Positions 1-50,508 are shown, numbered from the stretch's first letter. The stretch is DNA of 64,000 bases from a virus (IMGVR_UViG_3300048858_000099:5373-69372), one strand, 5' to 3'. Program-made: numbers and translations. The notes: a model not told the origin generated them from the sequence alone.

Positions 1-2188
1 TACCCAGCACGAGACCCATGTCGATGTTCAGCGCCCCGACGGGGTGCCTCGTGGTGTCGGTCAGTTGCCACGCCTTGCCGCCGTCGACATAGAACTCGAT
101 GGCGCTGGGAGTCCAGACGACGGCGTAGGAGTGGGGGACCGTTAGGTCAAGGCTGACCTGAGAGCTTGTGACGTTGTTGCTCGGATCGCGGACGTAGAAG
201 ATCACCTCGTCTGCCCCGCCGTCGCGGTGACTAAGTAGCCCGATGGCTCCGTCGGCGTAGTTGGCGCTCTTCAGTTCGACGACTGGGCCGTACCCTGGGC
301 CACGGTCGAGCTTGGCCTTGATCTCCCAGCGTCCGTACTTCTGCGCGTTGCCGTTTGCTCGCAACCCACCAACGAACGACCCGCTGCCGAGGATAGTGAG
401 GAACCCCTCAGACTGGATCGCTGCGGTTCCCCCAGAGACGGCAGGAGTTGTGAGCACAGAGTTTCTGATGATGTGCTCGACCATGGGCCGCCACACCGTG
501 CCCGCGGGCGGCTCGGGCCCGAAGGAAGAAGGCGGCGGAATCCCGTCGCCCCCGACGTTGTACGGGCCGTCTGACTCACCGGGCACCTTGCACCAGATAT
601 GCCCATGGCGTCGAGCTACGCCGTCCAATCCGTTCGGGCTATAGCGACTTCGCTCACCAAGCGCGATGCCCGTTGGGTTCTGCCAGTCCTGCGGGTTGGG
701 CGGGTTCTGTGCACCGTTGCGCGAGGTGTCGATGATGTAGCCAAGCTTGCCCTTCGGCACGCCGTACTGACTCTCCAGGATGTCGATGGTGCCGTTGGCG
801 TGCACCTCGCAGTCTGCCGTGGGTCGAAAGTTGGAGATGTTCTCGTTGATGCCATCGCACAGTTCGACGCCAGCCTTGGACAGCACGAAGGCCATGTCAC
901 TGGGGCCGAGCCATTGACTGTGACCGTTGTCGTGGTAGATCCGAGCGTTGATGCACTTTGCACGGATGCGCTTCACGCACTCCTTGAGCAGATACATGCG
1001 CTGGTCGAACTCGGCCTGAGTGATCTTGCCGCCGCGCAGCTCGCCGAGCACCTGCGGCAGGGCATCGGGCTCCAGGGCAATGACCGCGTATTGCTCGCCG
1101 ATGGCAGCGCACTGCTCGTCTACCCACTGCAGGTACTGAGCACTGTTCTGCGCGCCACCGCTGGCTGCTCCTCCGAAGTCGCGACCCAGGATGCTGTAGA
1201 AGATGAAGACGTTGTACTGACCGGCAGCCTTCGCTGCAGCCACGGCATTCGCCGTGACGTTCGAGCCAAGCGGCACCCACTCGATCCCGAGCCACTTGGC
1301 GCCGGCCGTGCCGACGATGTAGTCGATGCCCTTGAGGATCGCCTGGTCGCTGTAGTTGCTGCGGATGGTCCCGATCGTGTTCGCGGGATCTGCCCAGAGG
1401 TGCCAGCCTTCCGTGACCGGGGCAGCCGAGCCGCCTGGGTCGCCGTTGTTGTACACCGTCCAGCGCTGCCCGCTCGGGGTGGTGCCCTCCGTGAAGTCGT
1501 CGTAGTCGAGAAGCGTGTAGCCCGCGGGGGTGGTGGGAGTTGTCGAGCTTCCGCCGCCGCTCGATCCGCCTGTGTTGCCAGTGTCGTTTGACCCACCGAG
1601 CGTGACGTTGTTGTCGTAGGTCGAACGACTGGCGTGAGGAGTCCCGAGCCATGAGTACGTCTTACCCGGCACAGTGGCCGTGGCGGCGATGTCAGGGGTA
1701 TCACCGTCGAAGTAGGGCGTGGCGTTGCCCGCCGTGAACGCGAGGTTCGTAAACCAGCACGTTCCGGTCGAGGTCGCCCCGTAGGAGCCCAGGCCGAAGA
1801 TGACCTCGACGGTGGTGCGCTCCGAGACCGTGACGTTGACACCCTCGAAGGTCCAGGGCCGACTGGCGCCGTAGTGGCGCTGTGCGAGGACCTGGTACGC
1901 AGCGGTTCGGACGACGATGTGAGCGTTCGTGACGAGTTCGTTTGTCTGGTACTGGTACTGCAGGTAGTACGTGCCAGGGTCGAGCGTGACCGACATGATG
2001 CGGGCGCCAGCGTCACCACTCTGGCCCTCATGGAAGAAGAACTTGAACGCCGAGGTTCCGTTCGGGCCGTCTGTGGCCTTCTGCTCCAACTTGAAGTTGG
2101 GCGTGGTGGCGTTGCCTCCATACGTGGGTATGGAGGCAAGAGAGCCCTTAGCCCTGGGGTTCTCGACGTATTGCGTAGTGAGAGTCAA
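1..2188 (-). CDS. Tail-module multidomain glycosidase, 3'-truncated by the window edge: N-terminal beta-rich/CBM-like region, Gly/Ser/Thr linker, GH16-like (ConA) domain interrupted by a complete GH6 domain
   Basis: Not in the ORF track. Translated by hand from TTG at 2188 with no stop to position 2. GH6 motifs: GRDFGG, IALEPDALPQ (1052-1081), YHDNGHSQWL, NISNF, YIIDTSRNG (713-739), IWCKVPGESDG (566-598). GH16-like flanks: YTLLDYDDF..RW, YGRWEIKAKL, HSYAVVWTPSAIEFYVDG. Confidence 0.85.
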   Translation of the reverse strand, partial: MTLTTQYVENPRAKGSLASIPTYGGNATTPNFKLEQKATDGPNGTSAFKFFFHEGQSGDAGARIMSVTLDPGTYYLQYQYQTNELVTNAHIVVRTAAYQVLAQRHYGASRPWTFEGVNVTVSERTTVEVIFGLGSYGATSTGTCWFTNLAFTAGNATPYFDGDTPDIAATATVPGKTYSWLGTPHASRSTYDNNVTLGGSNDTGNTGGSSGGGSSTTPTTPAGYTLLDYDDFTEGTTPSGQRWTVYNNGDPGGSAAPVTEGWHLWADPANTIGTIRSNYSDQAILKGIDYIVGTAGAKWLGIEWVPLGSNVTANAVAAAKAAGQYNVFIFYSILGRDFGGAASGGAQNSAQYLQWVDEQCAAIGEQYAVIALEPDALPQVLGELRGGKITQAEFDQRMYLLKECVKRIRAKCINARIYHDNGHSQWLGPSDMAFVLSKAGVELCDGINENISNFRPTADCEVHANGTIDILESQYGVPKGKLGYIIDTSRNGAQNPPNPQDWQNPTGIALGERSRYSPNGLDGVARRHGHIWCKVPGESDGPYNVGGDGIPPPSSFGPEPPAGTVWRPMVEHIIRNSVLTTPAVSGGTAAIQSEGFLTILGSGSFVGGLRANGNAQKYGRWEIKAKLDRGPGYGPVVELKSANYADGAIGLLSHRDGGADEVIFYVRDPSNNVTSSQVSLDLTVPHSYAVVWTPSAIEFYVDGGKAWQLTDTTRHPVGALNIDMGLVLG

Positions 2189-4250: not shown

Positions 4251-4255
4251 CTGCC

Positions 4256-6057: not shown

Positions 6058-6719
6058 GGCAGTTTGAGCACCTGTCCGACCTTGAGCGTGCGTGGGTCGC
6101 GGATGCCGTTCAGGTTCGCCAGCTCTTGCCATCGGTTGGCGTTGCCGAGCTGGCTGGCGGCGATCCGCGAGAGCGTGTCGCCCGACTTCGCCGTGTACGT
6201 CTTGCCCGGCACGGCCGCCCCTGTCCCGGTGCTGACCTGTGCAGATTCAGCCCGCGCAGCAGCAGCAGCAGCTGGCGACTTCTGCTGCACGATGATCTCG
6301 GCCGGCACGTACTCCAGGAAGTTCAGGGTCAGTGCCTGACGGCTACGGCGTCCGTCCGATCGCCGCTGGCACTCACCCGAGTCATCAACCGATTCAAGAA
6401 CCCACACCAGGTCGGCGTGAGACATCGCGGGGCCAACGAGCTTCAGCAGGTCGGGCTCACTGCGGTCTTCGGGGCGGTGCATCCGGTCCTCGACAAGTCG
6501 GATCAGTTCTTCCACGTCGCCATCGGGCCAGGCGTCGAAGATGATCGAGAGCTTGCACGTCCACGGCTCCTCGCCCGTGAAGGTGGTGAAGCTCTTCCGG
6601 CGTGGGCGGCTGATTCGGTCCCACGTGGCAGAGCCGCCCGAGTAGCGAGGTGGGTCACCGCCCAGCGGGAGACCGACGACGGGCTGACCGCTGGAGAGCA
6701 TCATGGTGATGGTGGTCAT
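6054..6719 (-). CDS. Tail tube initiator-like protein with C-terminal LysM domain
   Basis: YTAKSGDTLSRIAASQLGNANRWQELANLNGIRDPRTLKVGQVLKLP is a LysM domain; ATG at 6719 overlaps the tape measure stop. Confidence 0.85.
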   Translation of the reverse strand: MTTITMMLSSGQPVVGLPLGGDPPRYSGGSATWDRISRPRRKSFTTFTGEEPWTCKLSIIFDAWPDGDVEELIRLVEDRMHRPEDRSEPDLLKLVGPAMSHADLVWVLESVDDSGECQRRSDGRRSRQALTLNFLEYVPAEIIVQQKSPAAAAAARAESAQVSTGTGAAVPGKTYTAKSGDTLSRIAASQLGNANRWQELANLNGIRDPRTLKVGQVLKLP

Positions 6720-19273: not shown

Positions 19274-20504
19274 CGGTCACTCCTTCTAGGCGCATGGCAG
19301 TTTGCAGTGCGCGGCGTCGCAAGGCTCCGCTGCGAGCGTGAAGACTGGTCAGTTGTGAGGTAATACGGCTCACCCCGAGGTTGGCGCTTGTGTAGTCAGC
19401 GATCTGTTGGTCTTGTTCTCTGGAGTCACTCAATGGAACCAGCACCGACAGCAGGTTCTTTTGCGATATGTTCCGCATGCTGTCCTTAGTGCCGGTTGCA
19501 AGCCCACTAATTTGTTGACGCACTGACTTGGAAGAGAGCACCGCCTGTAACCATGCTCCATTGACACCCTCGCGTAGCGACAATCGCATGCTCTTGTCGC
19601 TTAGCAGCAAACGAGGACGGGTCTCGCCAACTAGAACAGAGGCTCCTACATATTCTTCTGTGTTCGCGCGGCTGACAAGGAGGTCACCCTCACGGATTTC
19701 AAAACGGGGATCAATCAGGTGGGCGTCGACGAACTTGTTCTCTTCGGGTCGGAAGCTTCCCCACGTCATGGCGCTGACTTTGACGATTCCCCATTCGTTC
19801 TCGGCAGCAGCGCGCGTTGCCTTGCCGAAAGACTTACCAGCGGTGATTGACGAGACGTAATGCGTCAAAGGCACAACGGGGCGTCCTGTCAGAAAGAAGT
19901 TCCCGGAGTAGGCGTGCTGGAGGCGCGCCGCCCTTTCTCGAGCGGTGAGCAGTGCCGCTTCCGCTACTTTAAGGCTGGAAAGTTGGTCGTCCAGGAAGTC
20001 CGAGATGCGCTCCTGGGTGGGAAGTGGCGGCCTGTTGAAGGGCAGTTCCGAGACAGCAGCTTTCCCGATCTGCGGAAGAACTGAGCCGTTGGAAAGACTC
20101 TTGAGATCCAACGCTTCAAACCAGTGCATCAGGTAGCGAGCCGATACGTCGGGGCCAGGGATTACTGCCATGCAGTTCAGGTCGACCGCTCCTGGGACCC
20201 CAAGCCTGCGCTTCTTATTGGTTGCAATGGCGCCCCCCGCTTTTGGGAAGATGATCGCACCCGGTGGAAGCATGCGCAGTGACAGCGCCTTGGCTTCTTG
20301 CTCCGAGACGTACACACGACTGTGGGTCATGGTGGTCGGGTGGGTGTTCATATCGCCCACCTTGAAGAAAGGGATCGTGCGTCCTGTGTCCGGACGCCCC
20401 TCAAGAAACTCAGCCAAGCCCTTAGGTGTCTTGCCCGGAACGATGTCTGCGACTCGCTCCATCGTCGTGTCGTCCCAAACGACGCTCGGGATCGAATCGG
20501 TCAT
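19263..20504 (-). CDS. hsdS: Type I RM specificity subunit S
   Basis: Two TRDs with a PPLPTQERI..LD conserved region; lower GC than its neighbours. Confidence 0.93.
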   Translation of the reverse strand: MTDSIPSVVWDDTTMERVADIVPGKTPKGLAEFLEGRPDTGRTIPFFKVGDMNTHPTTMTHSRVYVSEQEAKALSLRMLPPGAIIFPKAGGAIATNKKRRLGVPGAVDLNCMAVIPGPDVSARYLMHWFEALDLKSLSNGSVLPQIGKAAVSELPFNRPPLPTQERISDFLDDQLSSLKVAEAALLTARERAARLQHAYSGNFFLTGRPVVPLTHYVSSITAGKSFGKATRAAAENEWGIVKVSAMTWGSFRPEENKFVDAHLIDPRFEIREGDLLVSRANTEEYVGASVLVGETRPRLLLSDKSMRLSLREGVNGAWLQAVLSSKSVRQQISGLATGTKDSMRNISQKNLLSVLVPLSDSREQDQQIADYTSANLGVSRITSQLTSLHARSGALRRRALQTAMRLEGVTDER

Positions 20505-23263: not shown

Positions 23264-23538
23264 GATGGACGGAGAGTACCGATCACCTCGGACACGGAGC
23301 GTGGTGATGAGTGGCGTGACCCTCGAAAGGGGGACGCGGTGCCGAAAGCGAGGGGCTGGCCACGGCCTGCGGCTTCCCCTCCGAGGCCGGGCCAGCTGCA
23401 GCAGTGTCGCACAAGTGTTCGAACGGTGTCACGCTCGTGGAGCGCTGAGCCATACGTCTCAATGTGGTCTCTGGGGCTCGTATGGACTGCTCTGAGGGCT
23501 TAGGTTGTTGCCAGAGGCGTACGACAACATGCGACACA

Positions 23539-23571
23539 GTGCGTCGTGGTGCGACGCACAGCGACATGTCG
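23539..23571. promoter_or_regulatory. Palindromic operator-like sites upstream of the small two-gene unit
   Basis: GTGCGTCG-tggtg-CGACGCAC (23539-23559) and CGACATGTCG (23562-23571). Confidence 0.4.
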
Positions 23572-23612
23572 GACGCCGATGAGAGCGTACGGAGCGAAGG
23601 AGGAGAGACGCC

Positions 23613-23825
23613 ATGACGATTGCCGAACTTGCCGCCCTCCACACCGGAGTGACCGTCGAAGACATCGACCTCGACGAGGTGCGCGACAACCTGGACCATG
23701 TGGCTAAGCGCTACCTGGACATTGACGGTGCCACCTTCCTGGCTCGCCGAGCGGCAGGCGAGTACGACGGCGTCGACACGCCTGCGGTGATGCGCGTCAT
23801 GGACGTCGCAGAGCTGCTCGACTGA
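23613..23825 (+). CDS. Small acidic protein, putative antitoxin
   Basis: 70 aa; strong RBS (AAGGAGGAG); stop lies 12 bp before the 189 aa gene. Confidence 0.6.
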   Translation: MTIAELAALHTGVTVEDIDLDEVRDNLDHVAKRYLDIDGATFLARRAAGEYDGVDTPAVMRVMDVAELLD

Positions 23826-23837
23826 CACCATCTCGGG

Positions 23838-24407
23838 GTGCCAGGCCGAACGCCCGCTGAAGCGGTTACCGCCTTCGTAGAGCCCCTGCAGGCTGCCCTG
23901 GGCTGTCTCGCCATTGGTGCACGCATCAGCTGCAAGCCCAGCCGGAGCCCGAAGCTGGGGTCCGACGCCAAGTGGATCATCAACGCTGGTGGCGGCTTGA
24001 GCTTGCGCAGTGTCGCTGGCGACCGCGATCTCGTCTTCCACGCCTCTATGGAGTGGAAGGTCATCCCGGACACTGGCCCGAAGGGGCCATGCCGCGTGAC
24101 CACGTTGGGCTACAAGTACAGCCTCGACGACGGTGGTGCTGAGCTGTGGGCGATGCACTGGCACCCGCGCGGCTCCTCCCCCGTCCACGAGCCGCACATG
24201 CACCTCGGCTCGGCGATGGCCACGGCCGGCCGACTCATCGACGGTGCGCACCTGCCCGTCCCGCGCCAGTCGTTCGAGGACGCTGTGCGCTGGTGCGTGA
24301 CCTTCGGCGCCAAGCCGGTACGTGACGACTGGGAAGAGCAGCTGAGGCTCGCGGAGCAGCCGCATCTCCTGCACCGCTCTTGGGACAAGACCAGCCCAAT
24401 CGTCTGA
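23838..24407 (+). CDS. Uncharacterised His-motif protein, putative toxin/effector
   Basis: MHWHP..SPVHEPHMHLG..HLPVPRQSFED..DWE; loosely reminiscent of DUF2290/TumE-like proteins. Confidence 0.6.
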   Translation: MPGRTPAEAVTAFVEPLQAALGCLAIGARISCKPSRSPKLGSDAKWIINAGGGLSLRSVAGDRDLVFHASMEWKVIPDTGPKGPCRVTTLGYKYSLDDGGAELWAMHWHPRGSSPVHEPHMHLGSAMATAGRLIDGAHLPVPRQSFEDAVRWCVTFGAKPVRDDWEEQLRLAEQPHLLHRSWDKTSPIV

Positions 24408-24447
24408 ACTGCAGACGCGGGCAGGCGATGATCGCTACGTTGCGCGC

Positions 24448-24954
24448 GTGACACCCGACGAGCTGGCCTGGTCCCGCTTCGAGATGGCCTGGAACCACCT
24501 CAACTCGGAGATCCAGATCATCTGGACGCGCTTCAGCGCCTTTTTGATCATCGAGGCAGCCCTCATTGCCTTCGCCGCTCCTGGAGACGACGACCTCACC
24601 ACAGGCCTCACCTGGGTTCTGAAAGTCGGCGTCTGCCTATTTGGCGTAATCGTTTCCGTGATCTGGTGGGGAGTCACGCACGCAAGCCTGCAGTGGCTTG
24701 AACACTGGAGGTATGTGGCCTACCGCCGAGAACAAGACCTGGATGGCATCACTGATCGAGATCCCACCACCAGGACTGGCGTGCCCGATAATGACCTGAC
24801 TTTTCTGTGGAAGAGTGCGGAGCCGATGACGTCTGATTCCCCTTGGGAGAAGGATTGGCGCCCCACGCGAATTGCGGCTTGGACCCCGCCTTTGCTTGCG
24901 CTGTTGTGGGTGGGCCTCGGCGTGTTTTACGTTCTCGCGCACCGTGCGGTCTGA
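24448..24954 (+). CDS. Multi-TM membrane protein, possibly RipA/SLATT-like pore former
   Basis: E.Q.IWTRFSAFL-TM-TM-W....S..WL..W pattern plus a C-terminal TM. Confidence 0.55.
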   Translation: MTPDELAWSRFEMAWNHLNSEIQIIWTRFSAFLIIEAALIAFAAPGDDDLTTGLTWVLKVGVCLFGVIVSVIWWGVTHASLQWLEHWRYVAYRREQDLDGITDRDPTTRTGVPDNDLTFLWKSAEPMTSDSPWEKDWRPTRIAAWTPPLLALLWVGLGVFYVLAHRAV

Positions 24955-24960
24955 GCCTGC

Positions 24961-26391
24961 ATGACAGATGAGAGCCGCGAGGGCGGCAACCCAACGGCGT
25001 CGGCGGACGCCACGACCAAGAAGCGGCCTCAAGGCCGAATGGCGCTATTGGTCGGTCGACGGCTGGACGATTTGACCGCCTGGGTGAGGAAACGTCTCGC
25101 CCTGGCCATCGTGTTGGCCGTGCTCTTGGGCCTGTCGATCATCTTCCTTGGCGTCTGGAAACTGCCCGAGTGGTTGGTCAATGAAGACCTCTACAACCGC
25201 AGGACACAGCGGGTCGAGATGCAGGAGGCATATAACGCAGCTCGGACGCCGGTTGGAGTTGTGTTGGCCGGGACCCTGGCGGCTGTGGCGGCAGGTCTTG
25301 GTGTGCTTATAAATCACCGAAACGTCGCCCTTGGTCGTGAACAGCTCAAGGAAGCCCAAACTAAAGACGCTAGAGATCGCGAGCAATACCGTGACGACAT
25401 CAAGATCGCCGGGGAGAGGGATCGGCTAGACCGCGAGCAATACCTTGCCGACGTTCTTCGTGCCACGGCGAAGGACCAAGCGGATCGCGAGCAGTGGCGT
25501 GAGGAGCAGTACGCCAAACGCTTTCAGGATGCCGCAAGGATGCTGGGAGACGACAAGGCCGCGGTCCGCTTGGCAGGCGTTTACGCCATGGAGAAAGTAT
25601 CGTTCGATTGGCAAGATCAGCGACAGACATGCGTTGATGTGCTTGCTGCTTACCTTCGCCTCCCTTGGCCATCGGCCCAAATAGCGGAGGAAGTGGGTCT
25701 ACGTCAGACCATCGGGAAGCGGTTGGTCTCCATCTTGGATACGGACAGCGAATCCATGGTGCTCGACCTGACTGGAGCGGAGCTGCGTCGATTCGAAGTG
25801 AGGTACCTGAAGTGTGGCACGCTAAGTCTGGATAACGCACTCTTGGTCGACTCTCACGTTCATTGCATCGCGCGTAGAGGGAGCTTCAGAGGTCTTAAGA
25901 TCGCAGGTGAGACGTTTGTTCAGCTGAACGGTGAGTACGGAACCGCCGACAGTTGGCACGGTCCCTCCGTTCGGCTGCTTTCCGGAAGGGGAACCCTTTA
26001 CTTGCATATTCCCAACGGTCACGAGAAGTTCAACAAAAAACCCGTCTACCTCGGGGGAATAGTTGTTGAGTCCGGAGCTGAGCTGTTGATTACGGTGCAA
26101 GCCGAAGGTGGCAACCCCTTCGAACTCATTTTCCGCGATATTGAGGTTCGGGGGCAATTGCACACAAGCGTGTTTTTCGACGAGCTATCGCCGAGTTCGG
26201 CGAGAATCTCAATGTCGGGGAGTGTTGAAGACTCAGGAACCGTCGGCGTACGCGCGGGGGCTTATGCTGGCACGGGGAATGAAATCCTCTCCGAGGTGAC
26301 TGCGAAACTCAAGAGGGCCGACGGATCGATGTATATACCGGAAGTGGGCAAACAAGCGCGTCTCGTTGACAAGTTCACCTCGCAGCCTTGA
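24961..26391 (+). CDS. Membrane-anchored protein with the actinobacterial pentapeptide-protein-type core and a divergent beta-rich C-terminus
   Basis: Two TMs, then RFQDAARMLGDDKAAVRLAGVYAMEKV..QTCVDVLAAYLR and DLTGAEL. Confidence 0.65.
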   Translation: MTDESREGGNPTASADATTKKRPQGRMALLVGRRLDDLTAWVRKRLALAIVLAVLLGLSIIFLGVWKLPEWLVNEDLYNRRTQRVEMQEAYNAARTPVGVVLAGTLAAVAAGLGVLINHRNVALGREQLKEAQTKDARDREQYRDDIKIAGERDRLDREQYLADVLRATAKDQADREQWREEQYAKRFQDAARMLGDDKAAVRLAGVYAMEKVSFDWQDQRQTCVDVLAAYLRLPWPSAQIAEEVGLRQTIGKRLVSILDTDSESMVLDLTGAELRRFEVRYLKCGTLSLDNALLVDSHVHCIARRGSFRGLKIAGETFVQLNGEYGTADSWHGPSVRLLSGRGTLYLHIPNGHEKFNKKPVYLGGIVVESGAELLITVQAEGGNPFELIFRDIEVRGQLHTSVFFDELSPSSARISMSGSVEDSGTVGVRAGAYAGTGNEILSEVTAKLKRADGSMYIPEVGKQARLVDKFTSQP

Positions 26392-26590
26392 GCGAAGTGG
26401 TGCCGGCGTGTAGAGATCAGTCGAAGACCACTTAGCAAGCGCCCCGTTTGCTCTATCGGCTAGTACTGACTGAGGCGGTCAACTGCGAGCTCGGGCACGT
26501 CTGGATCCGGTTGAGGGATAACCACAACGGGATCGTTCGCTGCATACAGCAACCGATCGCCGAAGTTGCGAAAGCCCCAATCGAGGCTGG

Positions 26591-27892
26591 TCACGATGCC
26601 ACTTTCAATAGCGCCGACGGCAACTCGTTCGAGATGGTTGACGAAAGCGCGCCGACGACGTAGTCCGCGAGCAGTGGCCATGTTGCGTGATACATATCCC
26701 AGGGACTGCGACGCGCTGTAGGTGAAGCGCTGTGCAGATCTAGCTGGCGTTGCGCATGACGCGTTAACCAAGTGTCGGCCGGCACGCTCGATTTAGAGTC
26801 GCCTTGAATGCAGTGCGCGAGGCCATCCAGCGCAACGTAGCAAGCCATCCTGTTGGCGTCGCCGTCATCCCCGCCGGGGTAATAAATGTCAGCGCTTCCC
26901 GCCTTGTAGACCGTGCCGCCTGGAGCCAGTTGAGGCGGGGATGAGAAAAACACATCCGTCATCGATCGGTAAACGAGAGACGCGTTCACTAAGGATGCTG
27001 CTGGAATCTTTCCCGTCGATAGAGCAAACGACAAGCCATTGATCCAGTTCTGGGCGAGGGAAGCGACGTAGTTCGCTGCAATGATGTTGTGGTTGTAGAG
27101 ATATCCACCTAACTCAATGTTAGAGCCGGCTTTGAGGGCCCATCCAGATAGTCCATTATGAGGGCGCTTCGACGTGGGCGTTGCAGGAGTTGCGGTAGCA
27201 GAGATGCAGAATTCGAGACCTTTACGCAACCAAAGCTCCGCATTCGCATGTTCTGGAAACGCACCCGCGGTGAGCGTGAGAACCCACCCGTTCCACGAGT
27301 TCTCTTCAGCCTTGGAGTCTGCAAACGGGAAGAAGAGGACGCGCCCGGAAGGATCTCGATAATATGGCGGGGGGTAAGCAAGGAAGCGATTGGACTCGCT
27401 GACCATCATGTTCTCGACTCGCTGCTGTTGAGCAGTCGACAATTGCGACCACAGCAGGCGCGCGCCACATGCTGCAAACGCGACCCAAAGAGCTCCTTGC
27501 CAGCGGTATGGGAACGACGCTTCGAGCTCAAGCATTGCAGTTGCCGGATCACCCCCCCAATTGCCGCCGTTTGCGACATGCGTCTGAGCGAAGGAATCGA
27601 TCAAACGAACTGCCGTCGCTTGAATCTCCACGGCTGAATATGCCGACACGCCGGGGGTGATCCCGCCAGTGGTTACGAGCACAGCAAAGCTAAAAGCGAT
27701 GCTTGCGGGCGGGCGGAGGTGTTCTTCGGCAACACCGCCAAATGACGCAATTGTGCCCGAGCCAGGATAAGTCGCGTTGACCCATTGCATCTGAGTGTCA
27801 ATGCAGTTTGTGGCTGCCCGTCGTACTAGCTCGCGATTTGCATTCGTTAGTGACCGAGGTGCGATTGAAGAAAAGACTGGATCAAAAGTCAT
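26591..27892 (-). CDS. Hypothetical helical protein, possible (alpha/alpha)-barrel polysaccharide lyase-like
   Basis: 433 aa, Trp/Tyr/Asn/His-rich (WQGALW, DSKAEENSWN, NHNIIAANY); lower GC. Confidence 0.45.
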   Translation of the reverse strand: MTFDPVFSSIAPRSLTNANRELVRRAATNCIDTQMQWVNATYPGSGTIASFGGVAEEHLRPPASIAFSFAVLVTTGGITPGVSAYSAVEIQATAVRLIDSFAQTHVANGGNWGGDPATAMLELEASFPYRWQGALWVAFAACGARLLWSQLSTAQQQRVENMMVSESNRFLAYPPPYYRDPSGRVLFFPFADSKAEENSWNGWVLTLTAGAFPEHANAELWLRKGLEFCISATATPATPTSKRPHNGLSGWALKAGSNIELGGYLYNHNIIAANYVASLAQNWINGLSFALSTGKIPAASLVNASLVYRSMTDVFFSSPPQLAPGGTVYKAGSADIYYPGGDDGDANRMACYVALDGLAHCIQGDSKSSVPADTWLTRHAQRQLDLHSASPTARRSPWDMYHATWPLLADYVVGALSSTISNELPSALLKVAS

Positions 27893-27895
27893 GTG

Positions 27896-29191
27896 TTACC
27901 CGTACACGAAGATGACGCGAGCCCAACCGGGCGATCCGTTGCCGCCGGCTCCAGCAGCGTTGCCGTTGAGAGACGCACCTCCGCCACCACCGCCCGCCCC
28001 TTTAACCGATGCAGTAGCTGTCCCACCTGCTTGTGCAGGACCAGTGATTGAAGCAGCACCGCCACCCGAACCTCCGCCACGCCAGCCGGGCATACCTACC
28101 GCGCCAGAAGCAGGGCCTGCGCCACCGACGATGCCACCGGCGAACTGAGTGTTGCCCTGGTTGAAGCAAAAGCTGCCGCCGCCGGCGCCGCCGTTGCTGG
28201 CGGCATCGGCGGCGCTGATTCCGCCTCCAGCCCCTCCGGGACCTGAGGCGCCTGAGTAATTCGCGTTTGGGTTGCCACCTATCCCTCCCGACGTCGAGGC
28301 AGACCCACCCATTGTCCCTGGTTGACCACCGCTTCCAGGAGCTCCACCGACACCGTCTGCTGCCGAACCACCCGATCCGCCTACTGCACCCTGCACGCGA
28401 AAGGTGTAGCTGCCAGCTGTAAATGTCGTAGTCCCGCCATCACCACCTTTGCCTCCGTTTGTGTCGTTGGCGCCGCCAGCGGAGCCGCCAGTTCCACCCG
28501 CGCCAATGGTGACGGAGTATGTGGTCCCAAGATTCGCGGCCGGTATCCAGAAGTCTTCAAAAACACCCGCTGAACCACCACCACCACCACCGCAACGGAC
28601 GGTGCCAGCAGCGCCGCGTCGTCCACCACCACCACCACCGCCACCACCAACGAGGCTGACGAGAACACCCACTGCGCCCTCCGGTATGGCTTGGCCAGAG
28701 ACCGAAGTGAGATGCTCAACGGCGACGCGTCGGCCTTGGTTGTAGGTCGCGTAGTTGGCGTCGAGAGCCGTCTTGCTTCGCCGATCCGAACCGACCTTCC
28801 ACGCGGTCCCCGACCAACGGAGGGTGACTCCAAAGCCAACCGTCGAGATGGTCTCTAAGGTGGAACCACCGTAGGTGAGCGAGAGTGCGTTCGCGCCAGC
28901 AGCTAGGAGGATCTCGACTTCGTCACCGTTGTCGGGTGACAACGGCAGGGGCTGAGATATTGCGGCCGCAGTCGTATCAAATGAAACGCTGTGCCATGGC
29001 AGCATGGCGTAAGAGCTGGTTTTCAGCCCTTGATCGCTAAATCGTTGGCGCTTTGTCAACAGCGACAATCCAAGGGTCCGAAGAGCGACGTTCAGACGCT
29101 TCGCCCAGTTGTTCTCGTCTACAACACCGCTCGCCGAACCGGGAGCAAGGAACTCAATCTCATCGACATCCGTGCCTGGGTACTTGGCCAT
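27896..29191 (-). CDS. Glycine-rich tail fibre-like protein
   Basis: LVGGGGGGGGG, TYSVTIGAGGTGG, GAGGNGSPGWARV typical of Gly-rich fibre domains. Confidence 0.8.
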   Translation of the reverse strand: MAKYPGTDVDEIEFLAPGSASGVVDENNWAKRLNVALRTLGLSLLTKRQRFSDQGLKTSSYAMLPWHSVSFDTTAAAISQPLPLSPDNGDEVEILLAAGANALSLTYGGSTLETISTVGFGVTLRWSGTAWKVGSDRRSKTALDANYATYNQGRRVAVEHLTSVSGQAIPEGAVGVLVSLVGGGGGGGGGRRGAAGTVRCGGGGGGSAGVFEDFWIPAANLGTTYSVTIGAGGTGGSAGGANDTNGGKGGDGGTTTFTAGSYTFRVQGAVGGSGGSAADGVGGAPGSGGQPGTMGGSASTSGGIGGNPNANYSGASGPGGAGGGISAADAASNGGAGGGSFCFNQGNTQFAGGIVGGAGPASGAVGMPGWRGGGSGGGAASITGPAQAGGTATASVKGAGGGGGGASLNGNAAGAGGNGSPGWARVIFVYG

Positions 29192-29210
29192 CCGTGACTC
29201 CTAGGTTTGG

Positions 29211-29234
29211 GGCAGGTCGATGCGAGGACCTGCC
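29211..29234. terminator. Hairpin between divergent genes
   Basis: GGCAGGTC-8 nt-GACCTGCC. Confidence 0.4.
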
Positions 29235-29334
29235 GGGGTGAGGGTGTGCGATGCGGAACCGCTGAAAGGGCTGTCCACGACATCGCACTCGGCCGTACCG
29301 TGATCGCTCGGGAGCGTCACGACGGGGAGGCGAC

Positions 29335-29754
29335 ATGGGCTGGTTCGGCCGGCAGCGGCACGAGGACGAAGAGCAGGACCGCCGTGTCGCACAGATGAGG
29401 GCTGACTACTACCGCCAGCTCGAGGAAGACCGTGTTCGTGACGCCCGCAAGCGTGATGACGAGTGGCGCCGGCGGTACGCGCGAGACCAGGAAGACCACC
29501 GGCGTGAGCAGTTACGCCGGGACGACGAAGCTCGGCGGCGGCGACTTGTCGAGGACGACCAGCGGCGTCGAGATGAGCAACGCCGACTGGACGACGAGCG
29601 CAGGCGCGAGGACTTGCGCCGGGCTGAGCTACGTCGTCAGGAGGAGCAGCGGAGGCGCGAGGAAGAGCGGCGCCGCCAAGAGCAGGAGCGGCGTAGGCAA
29701 GACGAGCAGCGTCGGCGAGATGACGAAGCACGCCGTCGTCGGGGTGGCTGGTAG
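29335..29754 (+). CDS. Highly charged Arg/Glu/Asp/Gln-rich protein (single alpha-helix-like)
   Basis: RBS GGGGAGG; repeated RRxDE/RRxEE units; opposite strand to its neighbours. Confidence 0.6.
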   Translation: MGWFGRQRHEDEEQDRRVAQMRADYYRQLEEDRVRDARKRDDEWRRRYARDQEDHRREQLRRDDEARRRRLVEDDQRRRDEQRRLDDERRREDLRRAELRRQEEQRRREEERRRQEQERRRQDEQRRRDDEARRRRGGW

Positions 29755-29760
29755 TCCGCA

Positions 29761-29814
29761 TCACGCGCCGAACGGGGCCGAGCCGAAGGGGGCTGAGCCG
29801 AAGCCGCCTTGGGA
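29761..29814. repeat. Direct repeat copy 1 (54 bp, 1 mismatch with 31341-31394)
   Basis: tcacgcgccgaacggggccgagccgaagggggctgagccgaagccgcc[t/c]tggga. Confidence 0.95.
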
Positions 29815-29910
29815 GGGGGGCTGCACAACCAAGGCCGCCATGAAGTCCAGGCCGAGGTTGTTGCCGAGCGAGCCCGGAGTCATGAGGTACGTGGGCGCGC
29901 CGAGGGCCAT
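29761..29910 (-). CDS. 49 aa protein ending SQGGFGSAPFGSAPFGA
   Basis: ATG at 29910 overlaps the stop of 29910-30185 (TGATG). Confidence 0.55.
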   Translation of the reverse strand: MALGAPTYLMTPGSLGNNLGLDFMAALVVQPPSQGGFGSAPFGSAPFGA

Positions 29911-30185
29911 CAGTCGTCGTTCCTCAGCCAGGCCCAGGTGGTCGACCCCGACTCCGTGTACGCCCATAGGGTGTCCGGGCCATTGAGCGGCATAGGCACG
30001 GTCGCGCCGGCCAGCAGTGGCCACCGCTGGCCGACCTGTATGTCCTCACCGCCACACCACAGCGTCACCGAGCCGGTGTTCGTGAACAGGAAGCTCACCC
30101 CGAGGCGGGTGCTGTCGGGGGACGATGGCAGCTCGATCGCCGCGGGGGTGGTGGTGGAGGTGCCCTCTTTGGCAGCGAAGGTCAT
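29910..30185 (-). CDS. Small beta-rich hypothetical virion-module protein
   Basis: 91 aa ORF coupled to the downstream gene. Confidence 0.6.
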   Translation of the reverse strand: MTFAAKEGTSTTTPAAIELPSSPDSTRLGVSFLFTNTGSVTLWCGGEDIQVGQRWPLLAGATVPMPLNGPDTLWAYTESGSTTWAWLRNDD

Positions 30186-30262
30186 ACGTCGACCAGGCTA
30201 GTCGCGGACATTGACAGGCAGTTGGACCAAAGGCCCTCACGCGAGGCCACGATCTAGATACG

Positions 30263-30733
30263 GTGCGTGACGTGCAACCCCTCGCGTTCCAGACTGCGGC
30301 GACCGTCGTTCCTACCGTTGCGATCGCGGTCGCGATCTCGGGCAAGTTCTTCCTGCCATCGACCTACGACGACAAGGTCACATACCCGAGCTGGCTGGCG
30401 GGGTGGATCAAAGAGTACTTGTGGCTCGTCGCGCTCCTGTTTCTCGCGTTCGCTGTGAGAGCCGAGCGCGTAGCGATGGGAGTTCTTGCGCGAGGGTCGG
30501 GTACGCCTGAGGAATGGAGTCAGGTTAAGTGGTCTCTGATCATCATGGCGGTCATAGGAGTGGTCGGCGTTGCTGTGCCGTCAGTGGCGGCTCGGATAGG
30601 GACGTCGAGGGCGGCGGTCGACAACGCTAAGGAGCACGCTCCGGTCTACGTCGCTAGAGAGGGCGCGCAGGCGCTTGTGATCTTCTACGCCATCTCGTTC
30701 GCAGGGATCGCCGCCATCGCCCTCTGGACCTAG
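30263..30733 (+). CDS. Multi-pass membrane protein
   Basis: Four hydrophobic segments; opposite strand. Confidence 0.65.
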   Translation: MRDVQPLAFQTAATVVPTVAIAVAISGKFFLPSTYDDKVTYPSWLAGWIKEYLWLVALLFLAFAVRAERVAMGVLARGSGTPEEWSQVKWSLIIMAVIGVVGVAVPSVAARIGTSRAAVDNAKEHAPVYVAREGAQALVIFYAISFAGIAAIALWT

Positions 30734-30734
30734 G

Positions 30735-31238
30735 TCAGTCACAGAACGACGAGGCGGGGTTTGTGCGCTCGTAGTAGTTCTCGCCCTTATAGACGATCCA
30801 GCCGGCCACTTCAACGCAGTGGCCTCGGGCGGGAACGGACACGGGTCCGGCGTAGTACTTGTACTTCGTGTCGTATTTGGCTGGCTGGGGGTCGCTGTCC
30901 ATCACGACGGGCGAGGTCTCGTGGCAGTCATCCCAGTACGGCTCTGTCTCGTAGCACTTCATGACGTACACATGAGTCTCGAGAGCAACCCCCACCGTGG
31001 GGCCTACGTGGTTCAAGACAGCGCAGTTTCGGCCGGTCTTAGAGTCGTAGTACGCCTTCATCTCAGCGATCTTTATCTTCTGTTTGTCGACAAATGACCA
31101 CGTCTCGAGGAGCTTGCCTGGGCACTTCCCCACCGGAGCCGCCGCCGCAGCCGGCTGGGCGGTAGCTAGCGCTGCAGGCAACAGCCCAAGCGCCAGTGCT
31201 GAAGCGATCGCTGTCAGACGTTGCTTGGTCGACCTCAT
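30735..31238 (-). CDS. Secreted protein, Streptomyces spore-associated protein A (SapA)-like
   Basis: Signal peptide MRSTKQRL..AQPAAA; YYDSKTGRNCAV, YKYYAGPVSVPARGHCV motifs. Confidence 0.6.
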   Translation of the reverse strand: MRSTKQRLTAIASALALGLLPAALATAQPAAAAAPVGKCPGKLLETWSFVDKQKIKIAEMKAYYDSKTGRNCAVLNHVGPTVGVALETHVYVMKCYETEPYWDDCHETSPVVMDSDPQPAKYDTKYKYYAGPVSVPARGHCVEVAGWIVYKGENYYERTNPASSFCD

Positions 31239-31340
31239 CGTGACCCCCCGAGCGTGGCTGGTGACGTTCTGGGAGCACCGTAGCCATGTGGGTGACACTT
31301 CGTGAGGGTGTTCCCTTGATCCGATCGAACTACATGCGTG

Positions 31341-45470: not shown

Positions 45471-45650
45471 TCAGGAGGGCGGGCGAAGGCCCATCTGACG
45501 ACGCGGCTCGCGCACCTCGACCAGGACTTCGCCGTTCGCGCCGAGGATGACACCAACCACCGGGTCTGGGTCGTCGTCCGAGAAGACGGTCATGGGTCCT
45601 GGGCTGGGGGAGTCGTCCCAGTAGGGCTCAGGCTCGTGCCAGTAGCTCAT
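45471..45650 (-). CDS. Small acidic hypothetical protein
   Basis: Translated by hand; ATG overlaps the TerS stop. Confidence 0.45.
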   Translation of the reverse strand: MSYWHEPEPYWDDSPSPGPMTVFSDDDPDPVVGVILGANGEVLVEVREPRRQMGLRPPS

Positions 45651-46180
45651 CCGGCTTCGAGCTGCAGGAGCGTGGCACGGACGAGCTGGGGCGCCTTGGC
45701 CTGCTGGTCCTTGGTGAGGCCGAGGCCGTCGAGGATGGTGCGAATGGCGATGGCGAGCATCTGGCCCTGGGCCTCGATCACGCGCACCTGTCGCTCAGCG
45801 ACACCGGCGTCCATGGCCGTCTTGGAGAGCTTGCCGGCCCGGTCCAGCCACTCCCCGTAGAGCTTGTGCCAGAGAGCTGCGGACGAGACGCCAGACGGGT
45901 CGTCCTCGTCGGCCTGGGCCATCTTCTCTTGCAGCCACAGCACCTCGGCCCAGCTGCGCCGGATCGCACCGTCGAGCACGGAGTAGGGGTCGACGTTGGG
46001 TGAGTCGAGCACCATGTTCTGGATGACCTCGCGGGCCGCAGCACGCTTACCCCCTGGTGAGGCTCCCGAGTGGTACTTACATCGCCCTGAGTGCTTGTGG
46101 TCTGTTCCGAAGCCTTTGACCAGCTTGCAGGTGGTGCCGTCCTTCTTGTTTGCACCGCACAAGCCGTCGTTCATCACCAT
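45647..46180 (-). CDS. Terminase small subunit-like protein (HGGxSTG-type)
   Basis: CGANKKDGTTC..GRCKYHSGASPG followed by a helical domain. Confidence 0.65.
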   Translation of the reverse strand: MVMNDGLCGANKKDGTTCKLVKGFGTDHKHSGRCKYHSGASPGGKRAAAREVIQNMVLDSPNVDPYSVLDGAIRRSWAEVLWLQEKMAQADEDDPSGVSSAALWHKLYGEWLDRAGKLSKTAMDAGVAERQVRVIEAQGQMLAIAIRTILDGLGLTKDQQAKAPQLVRATLLQLEAG

Positions 46181-47057: not shown

Positions 47058-47164
47058 GCATGGATTCTGTACGACGTATGTGACTGCACTGACCGATTCG
47101 TGCGGACATCACCCAGGCGGAACAGGGGGTGTCACTAGTTGTGGCACCCCACTACGCGAAGTAG

Positions 47165-47239
47165 CTCCGAGGGTGAGACTCGAACTCACCTCCATCACGG
47201 TTAACAGCCGCGTGCGCTCACCTGGAGTGCTACCTCGGA
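47165..47239 (-). tRNA. trnN: tRNA-Asn(GTT)
   Basis: Acceptor TCCGAGG/CCTCGGA, anticodon loop CTGTTAA, T-loop TTCGAGT; no encoded CCA. Confidence 0.9.
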
Positions 47240-47243
47240 AGGG

Positions 47244-47316
47244 TGCGCAAGGAGAGGGTTGAACTCCCGACTTCCGGTTCCGTAGACCGGCGCTCTATCC
47301 ACTGAGCTACTTGCGC
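47244..47316 (-). tRNA. trnR: tRNA-Arg(ACG)
   Basis: Acceptor GCGCAAG/CTTGCGC, anticodon stem CCGGT/ACCGG with loop CTACGGA, T-loop TTCAACC. Confidence 0.9.
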
Positions 47317-47317
47317 T

Positions 47318-47394
47318 TGGTGCGTCAGGGCGGAGTCGAACCGCCGACCGTGGGCTTAAGAGGCCCCTGCTCTAACCAACTGAGCTACTGACGC
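47318..47394 (-). tRNA. trnK: tRNA-Lys(CTT)
   Basis: Acceptor GCGTCAG/CTGACGC, loop CTCTTAA, encoded CCA. Confidence 0.92.
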
Positions 47395-47398
47395 AGAG

Positions 47399-47469
47399 CA
47401 CGCGCGAGAGGTGTCGAACCCCTGTTCCCGGGTTTGGAAGCCGGTGTCTTGCCGTTAGACGACGCGCGC
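47399..47469 (-). tRNA. trnW: tRNA-Trp(CCA)
   Basis: Stem CCGGC/CCCGG (C-C mismatch) around loop TTCCAAA; G73 discriminator. The Gly(TCC) register pairs poorly. Confidence 0.75.
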
Positions 47470-47816
47470 AGGACGAAGCGAGGTATTTCGCTTTCGCCAT
47501 CGCAGCGGTCGCTCGAAACAGGTCATGGAAACAGCTTAGTCGGAACCGCAGAGGTCGGCTGCGGTTCCACTGTGCGAGCTGCAATGCCCTGACAAGACGC
47601 GGGGTTGACCAGTCTCTGACTCGCACGAAGTGTCCGTGACTGGCGGAGTAGGCGCGCAGAGTCGCCTCGTTCTTAAGTCACGCCCCAACGTCGAACACAA
47701 ACCCGACAGCTACGACTCGCCCGCTCGGTATGCAACTTCTGCAAGTGCCGGGCCGTGACCTCCGCCAGACCGGAGTGATCCGCACACTAGCCGCTCGGCG
47801 GAACTAGACCGAGCGC

Positions 47817-48902
47817 ATGAACAGATCCGAAGTCCAGTCCAAACTACTCAGCCTGGGTGGCGAGAAGACCGACGCGTTCACCAACTCCGTGTTCGGTCTC
47901 GGCATCAACGATGCAGACACAGCCGAACAACTCCTGCTGATGGCCACCGTGCTCTCCGACAAGGGGTACGTGGGACCGAACTACCTCAGGACGGTGAAGG
48001 AGTGGGCCGCGTCACTGAAGGCGCCAGTGCCCACCCCGGCAACTCCTGCACCGTCAAAGGCCGTTGAGCCCACGCTGTACGCCGCCAGCAACCAAGCACT
48101 CGACCACGGTCACCAGCGTCTCGGGACCACGCCGCAAGGCGTCTGGGTCAACGGCTGGGGCGACATGGACCGGGCGCGTGAAGTCGCCCAGAAGGCCAAG
48201 GCCGCGGGTCAGGTGCCCCACCTTGTCGCGTACTACGCCGAGAACCGAGACAACGGTCAGTACAGCGCAGGAGGAGCCGCTAGTTCGCAGGACTACCGCA
48301 ACTGGGGCCGTGCTCTCGCAGACGCCATCCGGGGGTCGAACGCCATCGTGGTCCTGGAGCCCGATGCACTCACGCTCTACAACGGCACCCCTTCGACCCG
48401 GTACGCGGATCTGGGCTACGTCGGCAAGCTGCTCCTCGAAGCAGGCGCGAAGGTGTTCCTGTCGGCCGGCCACAGCCGATGGCTACCGGCCGACGAGGTT
48501 GCGAACCGTGGTCGCCAGGTGGGCTTCGGGAACTTCACGGGCTTCAGCTTCAACGACTCGAACTACCGCCCCCTGGCCGAGCAGGTCGTGTTCGCCGAGC
48601 AGGTGTGGGCGATGACGAACAAGGCCTACGTCATCGACACCTCGCGCAACGGGGCGGGCAAGGCGCCGCTCATCGAGGACGGGAGCGAGCGAGCGTGGTG
48701 CAACCAGCCCAGCCGGACGTTCGGCGAGCTGCCGACGCTCAAGCCGTCTCAGGGGGAGCACTGCTACGCCTATCTCTGGACGAAGCACGCTGGCGAGAGC
48801 GACGGGGCATGGAACCCATACAAGGGCGATCACAGTGCACCTGGGGCCGGTCAGTGGTTTGAGGAGTACGTGCAGGAGATGGAGCGGAACTCAGGCTGGT
48901 GA
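47817..48902 (+). CDS. Glycoside hydrolase family 6 (endoglucanase-like) with N-terminal helical domain and Pro/Thr linker
   Basis: ENRDNGQYSAGG, VVLEPDAL, SAGHSRWL, NDSNY, YVIDTSRNG, WCN, WTKHAGESDG; no obvious signal peptide. Confidence 0.92.
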   Translation: MNRSEVQSKLLSLGGEKTDAFTNSVFGLGINDADTAEQLLLMATVLSDKGYVGPNYLRTVKEWAASLKAPVPTPATPAPSKAVEPTLYAASNQALDHGHQRLGTTPQGVWVNGWGDMDRAREVAQKAKAAGQVPHLVAYYAENRDNGQYSAGGAASSQDYRNWGRALADAIRGSNAIVVLEPDALTLYNGTPSTRYADLGYVGKLLLEAGAKVFLSAGHSRWLPADEVANRGRQVGFGNFTGFSFNDSNYRPLAEQVVFAEQVWAMTNKAYVIDTSRNGAGKAPLIEDGSERAWCNQPSRTFGELPTLKPSQGEHCYAYLWTKHAGESDGAWNPYKGDHSAPGAGQWFEEYVQEMERNSGW

Positions 48903-49649
48903 GCCTTCTCGGCAGGACGTCTCACGTGCTGTGGGTTGCTTGTCGATCATGGAGTCTGTCGGTTCGGCGTCGACGGGGACAACATCACGCCACTTGCTGT
49001 TGCCATCAAACACAGCGCTAATCTCGCACCCGTTGCCGAACGTCAGGTGCAACCACACCTCGTAGTCTGCGGTCTCCAGACACGGCGACGGGACCCCCGT
49101 GTTCCTTGAGAAGTAGATGGTTGCTTTCATGCTTCTGCCCCCCTCAAGTATGGCGCCGTTCAGTGGTGCCTCCGGGGTCGTTGCAACGACTGAGTTCTCA
49201 AGGCCGCGGTTTTGGCACACGCCATCGCCATAGGTGAAGAATAGGACGGCCTGGACCTGAGCGATATCGGTTGGTGACCTTCCTTCGTTTCTCAGGCCGA
49301 AGTTGAGCTTGCCCACACCGAAGAACCACTCTCCAGGTCGGGATCCACTCGGGCTGTAGGCAACGGGGAGAGCTCCGGAGCCCTCAGCAATCTCTAGGTT
49401 TGCTTGCGCGGCACGCAAGGCTGACTCCGACGTTCGAAAGTTGACTACGCCGACGCCGATGCTGGTCACGAGCGCTAGGCCGGCAGCGGCTGCCGTAAGC
49501 CGCTTGTAGCGGAGGTCTCGCTTGTCGGCCAGGCGACTACGACGGTCGGCCTCCTGCTTCTGCTCCCACTCGACACGCTCGCGCTGCGACTTGGCGGCCT
49601 CCCACTCGAGGGCGTCCCGGTCGCTCGACTTGGCGCGTCGTCGTGGCAC
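48891..49649 (-). CDS. Single-TM protein with extracellular beta domain
   Basis: Charged N-terminus, one TM, Cys pairs. Confidence 0.55.
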   Translation of the reverse strand: MPRRRAKSSDRDALEWEAAKSQRERVEWEQKQEADRRSRLADKRDLRYKRLTAAAAGLALVTSIGVGVVNFRTSESALRAAQANLEIAEGSGALPVAYSPSGSRPGEWFFGVGKLNFGLRNEGRSPTDIAQVQAVLFFTYGDGVCQNRGLENSVVATTPEAPLNGAILEGGRSMKATIYFSRNTGVPSPCLETADYEVWLHLTFGNGCEISAVFDGNSKWRDVVPVDAEPTDSMIDKQPTARETSCREGSPA

Positions 49650-50166: not shown

Positions 50167-50508
50167 TTACTGTCCGGTGGCTTCCTGGAACTTGACGAGA
50201 AGGTCGTTGCTGAGGCGTCCACGGTCGGAAACCTCGATGCCTTCCTTCTTCGCCCACTCCCGGACGGCCGTCGTGTCGACCTTGGAGCTCGGGGCCGCGG
50301 CAGCCTTCTTGGCCGGGCCACGACGTGCGCCGCCGCCAACGCGGCGACCAGCCTCAAGGTAGGGAGCAAGGGCCTCGCGGAGCTGCTTCGCGTGCTCGTC
50401 GTTGAGGTCAAGCTCGTAGGTCACGCCATCCAGCCCGAGCGAGACGGTCTCTTGCGCCTCGGAGCCGTCGAGGTCATCAACGAGGGTGATCTGCGTGCGG
50501 GAAGCCAT
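50167..50508 (-). CDS. lsr2: Lsr2 nucleoid-associated protein
   Basis: LVDDLDG..A.ETV..GLDGVTYELDL..LREALAPY..VREWA..GIEVSDRGRL. Confidence 0.95.
   Translation of the reverse strand: MASRTQITLVDDLDGSEAQETVSLGLDGVTYELDLNDEHAKQLREALAPYLEAGRRVGGGARRGPAKKAAAAPSSKVDTTAVREWAKKEGIEVSDRGRLSNDLLVKFQEATGQ

Follow-up and report, generated by a model that had tools for sequence, protein, structure and literature searches.

A second GH6 gene in a temperate actinobacterial phage

Why should a phage that carries a glycoside hydrolase of family GH6 in its tail encode a second, free-standing one elsewhere in its genome, and at which stage of infection would this second enzyme act? The question is raised by the gene at positions 47817-48902 of the window, by which we mean the whole 64,000-nucleotide stretch of DNA analysed here. 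The window corresponds to bases 5373-69372 of a 69,372-base IMG/VR provirus (record G000), the completeness of which is estimated by CheckV at 73%. The source phage is temperate, its host is a Kineococcus-like soil actinobacterium, and the provirus encodes a Mu-type head and a contractile tail. An earlier reading, made from the sequence only, had proposed that one GH6 enzyme serves entry while the other is released at lysis or acts as a fitness gene of the lysogen. Here, we assessed what the free-standing gene encodes, where it lies, with which genes it has been retained, and which of its possible roles agrees best with these properties.

The free-standing gene encodes a true GH6 protein

The gene and the parts of its product are as follows.

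47817..48902, plus strand: free-standing GH6 gene, 361 aa plus stop codon, ATG start (open reading frame, Pfam, PDB and fold searches)
47817..48020, plus strand: four-helix N-terminal domain, residues 1-68 (AF2, pLDDT about 90)
48021..48074, plus strand: Pro/Thr/Ala-rich linker, residues 69-86, 18 aa (sequence; pLDDT below 50 at residues 70-81)
48075..48899, plus strand: GH6 catalytic domain of the short open-cleft endoglucanase type, residues 87-361 (fold, alignment)
48246..48251, plus strand: RD motif, R144-D145, followed by Asn where cellular homologues have Cys (alignment)
48357..48365, plus strand: EPD motif, E181-P182-D183, at the GH6 catalytic-acid position; invariant and aligned with the EPD of Mycobacterium tuberculosis (Mtb) Cel6
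48792..48806, plus strand: GESDG motif, G326-E-S-D329-G330 (alignment)

The ATG start is supported by a metagenome homologue (P0002, 67% identical), which opens with the same residues as the phage protein. The GC3 of the gene is 0.82, similar to that of nearby phage genes. Pfam assigned residues 92-333 to Glyco_hydro_6 (PF01341) with an E-value of 1.1e-33 and 117.8 bits against a cut-off of 27, and the top sequence match in the PDB was Mtb Cel6/CelA1 (1UP0, E 3e-42). PHROGs and NCBIfam contained no family for the protein. The AlphaFold (AF2) model, with a mean pLDDT of 83, matched the same Mtb structure in Foldseek at E 1e-25 (TM 0.85 by target, rmsd 2.6), and all 50 of the top 50 Foldseek matches were GH6 proteins or scaffolds derived from GH6, with bacterial open-cleft endoglucanases ranking above cellobiohydrolases. 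As modelled, the protein has the distorted alpha/beta-barrel fold of the family.

In order to examine the active site, we used an alignment of 13 sequences, that is, the free GH6 and 12 relatives. Residues Y139, R144, D145, E181-P182-D183, D274-T-S-R277, K323, G326, E327, D329 and G330 were invariant. The (L/V)EPD signature reads L180-E-P-D183 in the free GH6 and its catalytic-acid Asp is kept in all 13 sequences; both the substrate-distorting Tyr (Y139) and the signature Asp (D145) are kept in the phage protein as well. The V-x-Y-x-x-P-x-R-D-C signature is relaxed, with Pro replaced by Glu and Cys by Asn, and the loop that follows the EPD motif is shorter than in Mtb Cel6 and Streptomyces CslZ. 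Throughout the clade formed by the free copies (described below), catalytic residues and reading frame are maintained. The initial description of a stand-alone GH6 with intact RD, EPD and GESDG motifs is thus confirmed by the Pfam and PDB matches, the fold and the alignment, and we conclude that the protein is a true member of GH6. Its family, fold and motifs predict hydrolysis of beta-1,4-glycosidic bonds with inversion.

The free GH6 lacks an export signal and the conserved cysteine pairs

Neither a hydrophobic N-terminal stretch, nor a twin arginine, nor a lipobox was found in the free GH6, and no 19-residue window resembled a transmembrane (TM) segment. The best 12-residue Kyte-Doolittle window within the first 60 amino acids scored 1.38 in the free GH6 and 0.78 in P0002, while 102 of the 121 retrieved sequences (nearly all cellular homologues) had a window of at least 1.8 together with at least 4 Cys. 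The free GH6 and P0002 have neither the hydrophobic N-terminus nor four Cys. The remark that the protein shows no clear signal peptide is therefore borne out.

The cysteines tell a similar story. Signal-bearing cellular GH6 proteins share four conserved Cys columns in the alignment (RDC, DCL, WCN and DGxC), which in bacterial GH6 endoglucanases make up both disulfides of the enzyme. At the same columns the phage protein has Asn146, a deleted loop, a Cys295 left without a partner, and Trp. This pattern fits folding in the reducing cytoplasm. As far as can be predicted from the sequence, absence of a Sec, Tat or lipoprotein signal and of any TM segment would put extracellular glycan out of reach of the enzyme as long as the cell is intact.

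The part preceding the catalytic domain had been described as a helical domain of about 80 aa with a Pro/Thr linker. Both elements are present, and only the length had to be corrected, as the domain comprises 68 aa and the linker a further 18. The helices span residues 3-13, 16-26, 32-48 and 54-68, with a pLDDT of about 90 whether the domain is modelled in the full protein or alone. When the first 81 residues were used for an exhaustive HMMER search of 1.84 billion representatives, there were two matches only, a 237-aa fragment in which the same domain is fused to GH6 and a 56-aa fragment. So far, the domain has been seen only in this GH6 clade, including P0002 and the copy in a Kineococcus prophage. 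It had no match in Pfam, nothing below E 3 in Foldseek against the PDB, and a best VIA-align Z of 7.2, which lies inside the helical-bundle background and corresponds to generic four-helix-bundle matches only. No paralogue of the domain was found elsewhere in the 64-kb window, and Pfam and fold searches recognised no cell-wall-binding domain or carbohydrate-binding module (CBM) in the free GH6.

The gene lies at the junction of early and late phage genes

Nearly all genes of the window are on the minus strand, and the GH6 gene is antisense to all its neighbours. The features which define its surroundings are listed below, from left to right.

45647..46180, minus strand: terS-like protein, start of the packaging and late genes (PHROG; 50% identical in the Kineococcus vitellinus provirus G001)
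47164..47469, minus strand: four tRNA genes, Asn-GTT, Arg-ACG, Lys-CTT and Trp-CCA, transcribed away from GH6 (ARAGORN, Rfam)
48891..49649, minus strand: convergent gene for a 252-aa single-TM protein, its 3' end overlapping the 3' end of GH6 by 12 bases
50167..50508, minus strand: Lsr2 nucleoid-associated protein on the early-gene side (Pfam Lsr2, 3.5e-27), conserved beside GH6 in G001

With the tRNA genes and the 48891-49649 gene on the minus strand, the orientation opposite to the neighbours, noted already from the sequence, holds. Read from right to left, that is, from the early side, the order is ERF recombinase, exonuclease, Lsr2, two small genes and the antisense GH6. It continues with a conserved 125-base non-coding element, the four tRNA genes, a lipoprotein-like gene, the terS-like gene, an HNH gene, the large terminase and a Mu-type portal; about 14 kb of island DNA separates these from protease, capsid, sheath, tape measure, an M23 protein, baseplate J and a tail protein of 1482 aa. 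The GH6 gene is thus located within the phage, at the junction of early and late genes. The possibility that this segment is host chromosome was rejected, since the terS-like, terminase and portal genes lie on one side of it and the Lsr2, exonuclease and ERF genes on the other, and since a colinear provirus exists; the phage origin of the segment, on which the sequence-only reading depended, is secured by these flanking genes and by the colinearity with G001.

The 252-aa single-TM protein has no family match and its gene is absent from G001. A scan revealed no sigma-70-type promoter near the GH6 gene in either phage, and 3' of the window GH6 gene there is one terminator-like site only, a weak one. 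The phage Lsr2, which has both the dimerisation and the DNA-binding domain, is two genes away from GH6 here and directly adjacent to it in G001.

Two further observations concern the surroundings rather than the gene itself. The stretch of about 125 bases that separates tRNA-Trp from the start of GH6 (47640-47770, probably on the minus strand) is a conserved candidate structured RNA. Rhodococcus phage REQ2 has an unannotated counterpart with 91% identity, and an exact 33-mer of the element recurs in four IMG/VR contigs; in REQ2 and in two further sequences (L019 and L020) it lies near tRNA genes. Eight predicted base pairs, including the closing stem, show compensatory changes among five sequences, and the element matches no Rfam family. 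The island, at 17789-31300 between the portal/MuF and the protease/capsid genes, carries a complete type I restriction system (HsdM, HsdS and HsdR), an 8xMP membrane protein and several large proteins without a known family; the island genes that we tested (HsdM, HsdR and three of the large ones) had no match in G001.

Two GH6 copies are retained in a diverged relative

The other GH6 of the phage is part of a structural protein, of which the window contains the N-terminal half.

1..2188, minus strand: tail/baseplate partner, N-terminal 729 of 1482 aa (record G000 3112-7560, L006; the remainder lies left of the window)

This protein has a GH6 domain at residues 290-544, a GH16 domain at 612-730 and a GH8 domain at 839-1145, followed by Tail_P2_I. 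The RD, EPD and GESDG motifs are intact in its GH6 domain, which is embedded in a multi-domain structural protein of the late operon, in contrast to the free copy. The two GH6 sequences are 28% identical over 260 aa, and the tail copy occupies a separate long branch in the tree.

The closest genomic relative of the free GH6 (54% identity) was found in Kineococcus vitellinus T13, in a 67.8-kb provirus (G001) that is colinear with the window provirus and has both GH6 genes. Between the two proviruses, the terminase is 74% identical, the sheath 58%, the portal 51%, Lsr2 46% and the capsid 37%; the tail glycoside hydrolase protein, whose G001 homologue lies within an open frame of 1904 aa, is 60-70% identical. 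With its 54%, against 37-74% for structural and packaging genes, the free GH6 behaves as a core gene of the lineage. The free copies (the phage GH6, the metagenome protein and the K. vitellinus prophage copy) form a clade with an SH-aLRT of 99. Origin of the free GH6 by recent duplication of the tail copy was rejected on the basis of the 28% identity, the distance in the tree and the presence of both copies in G001, in agreement with the first impression that the gene is not a recent duplicate. The survey for co-occurring GH6 pairs thus yielded one in a diverged, colinear prophage, and since both copies are found there, and the two copies within one phage are only 28% identical and lie far apart in the tree, the pair is older than the split of the two phages and each member has been kept. 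Judged by these sequence comparisons, such paired retention argues for separate, non-redundant roles of the two enzymes.

The flanks of the free gene vary. In the window these are the tRNA genes and the lipoprotein-like gene, and in G001 an RNA ligase, a small TM protein and a family 2 glycosyltransferase (GT2); the regions upstream of GH6 in the two phages could not be aligned. The G001 GT2 (L003 8288-9934, minus strand) is a multi-TM protein of 548 aa with a QxxRW motif, and it is closest to the chitooligosaccharide synthases of the NodC type, although the match (E 3e-34) does not nearly reach the equivalog cut-off. About 55 bases separate it from the start of GH6, which is transcribed divergently, and the RNA-ligase gene lies nearby; a surface glycan made by the prophage is a possible product. 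In G001, where GH6 and Lsr2 are convergent, a GC-rich hairpin with A/U runs on both sides separates the two genes (L003 11075-11112, plus strand) and is probably a bidirectional terminator. With this strong hairpin after the gene, the GH6 of G001 forms a self-contained unit.

Outside this lineage, such genes are scarce. A scan of viral contigs with the single free-GH6 protein as a query gave nothing; with an alignment as the query, the Kineococcus provirus was the sole match, and in metagenomes a single distant fragment was detected. Among 50,697 phage records searched by tblastn, gp72 of Streptomyces phage Gilgamesh and one unverified scaffold were the only matches, and the BFVD set of viral structures contained no convincing GH6 fold match, in collections from which records close to the genome of the window may be missing. 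On these counts GH6 appears to be very rare in sequenced phages (one annotated genome in 50,697 records). As for the hosts, the two prophage copies are the only GH6 genes in the 4.9-Mb K. vitellinus genome, and a search of the host lineage for a CslA-GlxA-CslZ cluster revealed no GlxA-type marker in Kineococcus. In Kineosporia, this marker and the GH6 genes are on separate contigs. Kineosporia sp. R_H_3 has two cellular GH6 genes, and a Glyco_trans_2_3 gene is found at a distance of about 3 kb from one of them (G004 contig 98, 42496-46780), possibly as a synthase-glucanase pairing.

A likely lysis cassette lies about 45 kb away

A likely lysis cassette was found left of the window, 3' of the tail-collar and tail-fibre genes (record G000, L006, 254-2423, minus strand). 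Its first protein, of 260 aa, has an H..D..HxH pattern, and its nearest ESM-Atlas clusters are a viral VldE-domain cluster and a "putative endolysin"; the VldE-like match (score 0.91, TM 0.74 by target) is a lead only, and searches of Pfam, PHROG, the PDB and phage sequences by tblastn gave nothing for this protein. The second, of 102 aa, has a single TM segment, and its C-terminal part is charged and probably forms a coiled coil. The third, of 108 aa, has three TM-like segments and is holin-like. Apart from one weak, sub-threshold Pfam match, the cassette proteins matched neither Pfam nor PHROG, and all three occur in the same order in G001. Pfam scans of about 95 open reading frames of the record, itself 73% complete, revealed no amidase, GH25, GH19 or transglycosylase, and the M23 peptidase of the baseplate module was the sole other wall enzyme. 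The free GH6 is outside the cassette, about 45 kb from it, rather than next to a holin gene as an endolysin would be. The view that GH6 is the only lysin of the phage was rejected because a likely lysis cassette is present after the tail genes.

Proposed release at lysis and its alternatives

The explanation which agrees best with these results is that the free GH6 acts as a soluble beta-1,4-glycanase which is not part of the virion and which leaves the cell at lysis; we give this a probability of about one half. An active, endo-acting enzyme would be produced in the host cytoplasm, and the cell would then be opened by a holin and an endolysin, the likely genes of which are located elsewhere in the phage. 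Because the protein has no export signal and its cysteines are lost or unpaired, it probably reaches its substrate only at that moment. Outside the cell, its substrate would be a beta-linked surface glycan of the same class as the one which the GH6, GH16 and GH8 domains of the tail would attack at entry, so that progeny might be loosened from the matrix and neighbouring cells stripped. The tail protein with its three beta-glycanase domains gives indirect support to a matrix polymer as the target. What we infer for the free enzyme is that it is expressed late or in the lytic phase, that it is released when the cell lyses and that it is no part of the virion, and also the nature of its glycan. 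The original proposal of release at lysis agrees with the absent signal peptide and the lost cysteines; the gene, however, lies outside the likely lysis cassette. Cellulose, named in that proposal as the matrix, would be a candidate target only, the Kineococcus host having neither a GlxA-type marker nor a GH6 of its own.

The main weakness of this explanation is the layout, that is, an antisense, autonomous gene away from the lysis genes. A self-contained antisense layout is typical of independently regulated genes, often expressed from the prophage. GH6 could accordingly be an accessory gene transcribed in the lysogen, where it would alter the lysogen's own beta-glycan, be it by glycan turnover beside a prophage synthase, by removal of receptors against superinfection, or as a public good supplied by a few lysing cells. 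Its orientation is opposite to that of the lytic genes, its site is a slot of variable accessory genes, and in G001 it is divergent from the NodC-like GT2 and followed by the bidirectional terminator-like hairpin, a layout that mirrors the divergent arrangement of cslA and cslZ in Streptomyces (PMC9040799). However, CslZ is a lipoprotein, whereas no export route of any kind (Sec, Tat, lipoprotein or TM) is available to the phage GH6; moreover, the window phage has no GT2 at the GH6 site, and the divergence of GH6 is core-like, unlike that of a recent acquisition. We consider expression for the benefit of the lysogen unlikely. Less probable again is that GH6 is the glycosidase partner of a peptidase-type endolysin and cuts the beta-1,4 strands of peptidoglycan. 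In its favour, the purified Streptomyces CslZ, a GH6 which is CBM-less as is the phage enzyme, cut peptidoglycan, cellulose and chitin in vitro while its catalytic Asp mutant was inactive (PMC9040799), the phage GH6 has no signal peptide, as in classical endolysins, the Pfam scans mentioned above found no other glycosidase or amidase of the usual kinds, and the sole endolysin candidate is the 260-aa protein with the VldE-like peptidase lead. Against this, the gene is away from the holin-like genes, its product has no recognisable wall-binding domain, activity of GH6 on peptidoglycan comes from one in-vitro study of a different enzyme, and a glycosidase endolysin could lie in the part missing from a 73% complete record. 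If GH6 did play this part, it would represent a new catalytic family of endolysins, having arisen from wall-remodelling enzymes similar to CslZ that lost their export and the conserved Cys, which we find quite improbable; to our knowledge, GH6 is not a recognised endolysin family.

Two other roles appear very unlikely. The four-helix domain might dock the enzyme on the capsid or tail, and a confidently folded domain, confined to this GH6 clade and joined by a flexible linker, does have the architecture of a docking module. The gene, however, is outside the structural block and on the other strand, the domain has no paralogue elsewhere in the window, and the baseplate protein already brings a GH6 to the virion. 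Just as remote is an auxiliary metabolic gene through which the host would use plant cellulose, or a gene without a current function. Glycoside hydrolases carried by viruses are often interpreted in metabolic terms, and the K. vitellinus genome has no GH6 beyond the two of its prophage; but the protein has neither a CBM nor an export signal, its closest relatives are of the short CelA1/CslZ type and not biomass cellulases, and the kept catalytic residues and frame in all clade members speak against loss of function.

If release at lysis is the right explanation, the phage would direct two enzymes of the same family against the beta-glycan coat of its host, the baseplate copy for entry and the free copy for exit. 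A layer of beta-1,4-glycan that has so far escaped study would then be indicated as a barrier to phages in Kineosporiaceae. The explanation would also mean that a GH6 can fold without the Cys pairs of its exported relatives, so that cytoplasmic expression should be easy, which is of practical interest. The colinear prophage resides in a cultured strain, K. vitellinus T13.

Comparison with known systems

Mtb Cel6/CelA1 (Rv0062; 1UP0, 1UOZ) and Streptomyces CslZ belong, like the phage GH6, to the short, CBM-less type of actinobacterial endoglucanases. They are about 34-40% identical to it and have the same catalytic motifs and the same size with an open cleft. However, both are exported, by a signal peptide or as a lipoprotein, and have kept the four Cys, neither of which is true of the phage protein, while the four-helix domain with its Pro/Thr linker is a feature of the phage protein which they do not share. 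CslZ is encoded divergently from a glycan synthase, as GH6 is from GT2 in G001; a processive GT2 next to GH6 is present only in G001 and not in the window. The exported or lipid-anchored state of the CslZ/BcsZ type is not found in the free GH6, which has no signal peptide or lipobox. The free GH6 thus departs from all characterised GH6 enzymes in that it has no export, no conserved Cys pairs and a private N-terminal domain.

Among phages, gp72 of Gilgamesh, annotated as a "glycoside hydrolase", is 33.5% identical to the free GH6 over 200 aa and belongs to another GH6 branch. Unlike the antisense free GH6, its gene directly follows the minor tail genes on the same strand, and it is the single copy in that phage.

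The closest parallels in the way of working come from other enzyme families. Bacillus phage phiNIT1 has two soluble depolymerases of capsule or EPS, PghP and LevP, which do not belong to the virion; they are synthesised within the infected cell and released by the burst against a polymer barrier (PMC6966330). They are phage-encoded hydrolases derived from hosts and are not tail spikes, and the same working mode is proposed here for the free GH6, which is likewise encoded by a phage, outside the structural genes, and has no export signal. Their substrates are poly-gamma-glutamate and levan and their families are unrelated to GH6; moreover, phiNIT1 is lytic, whereas the GH6 phage is temperate and carries a virion copy of the same family. 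The working mode suggested for the free GH6 would thus have precedents in other enzyme families.
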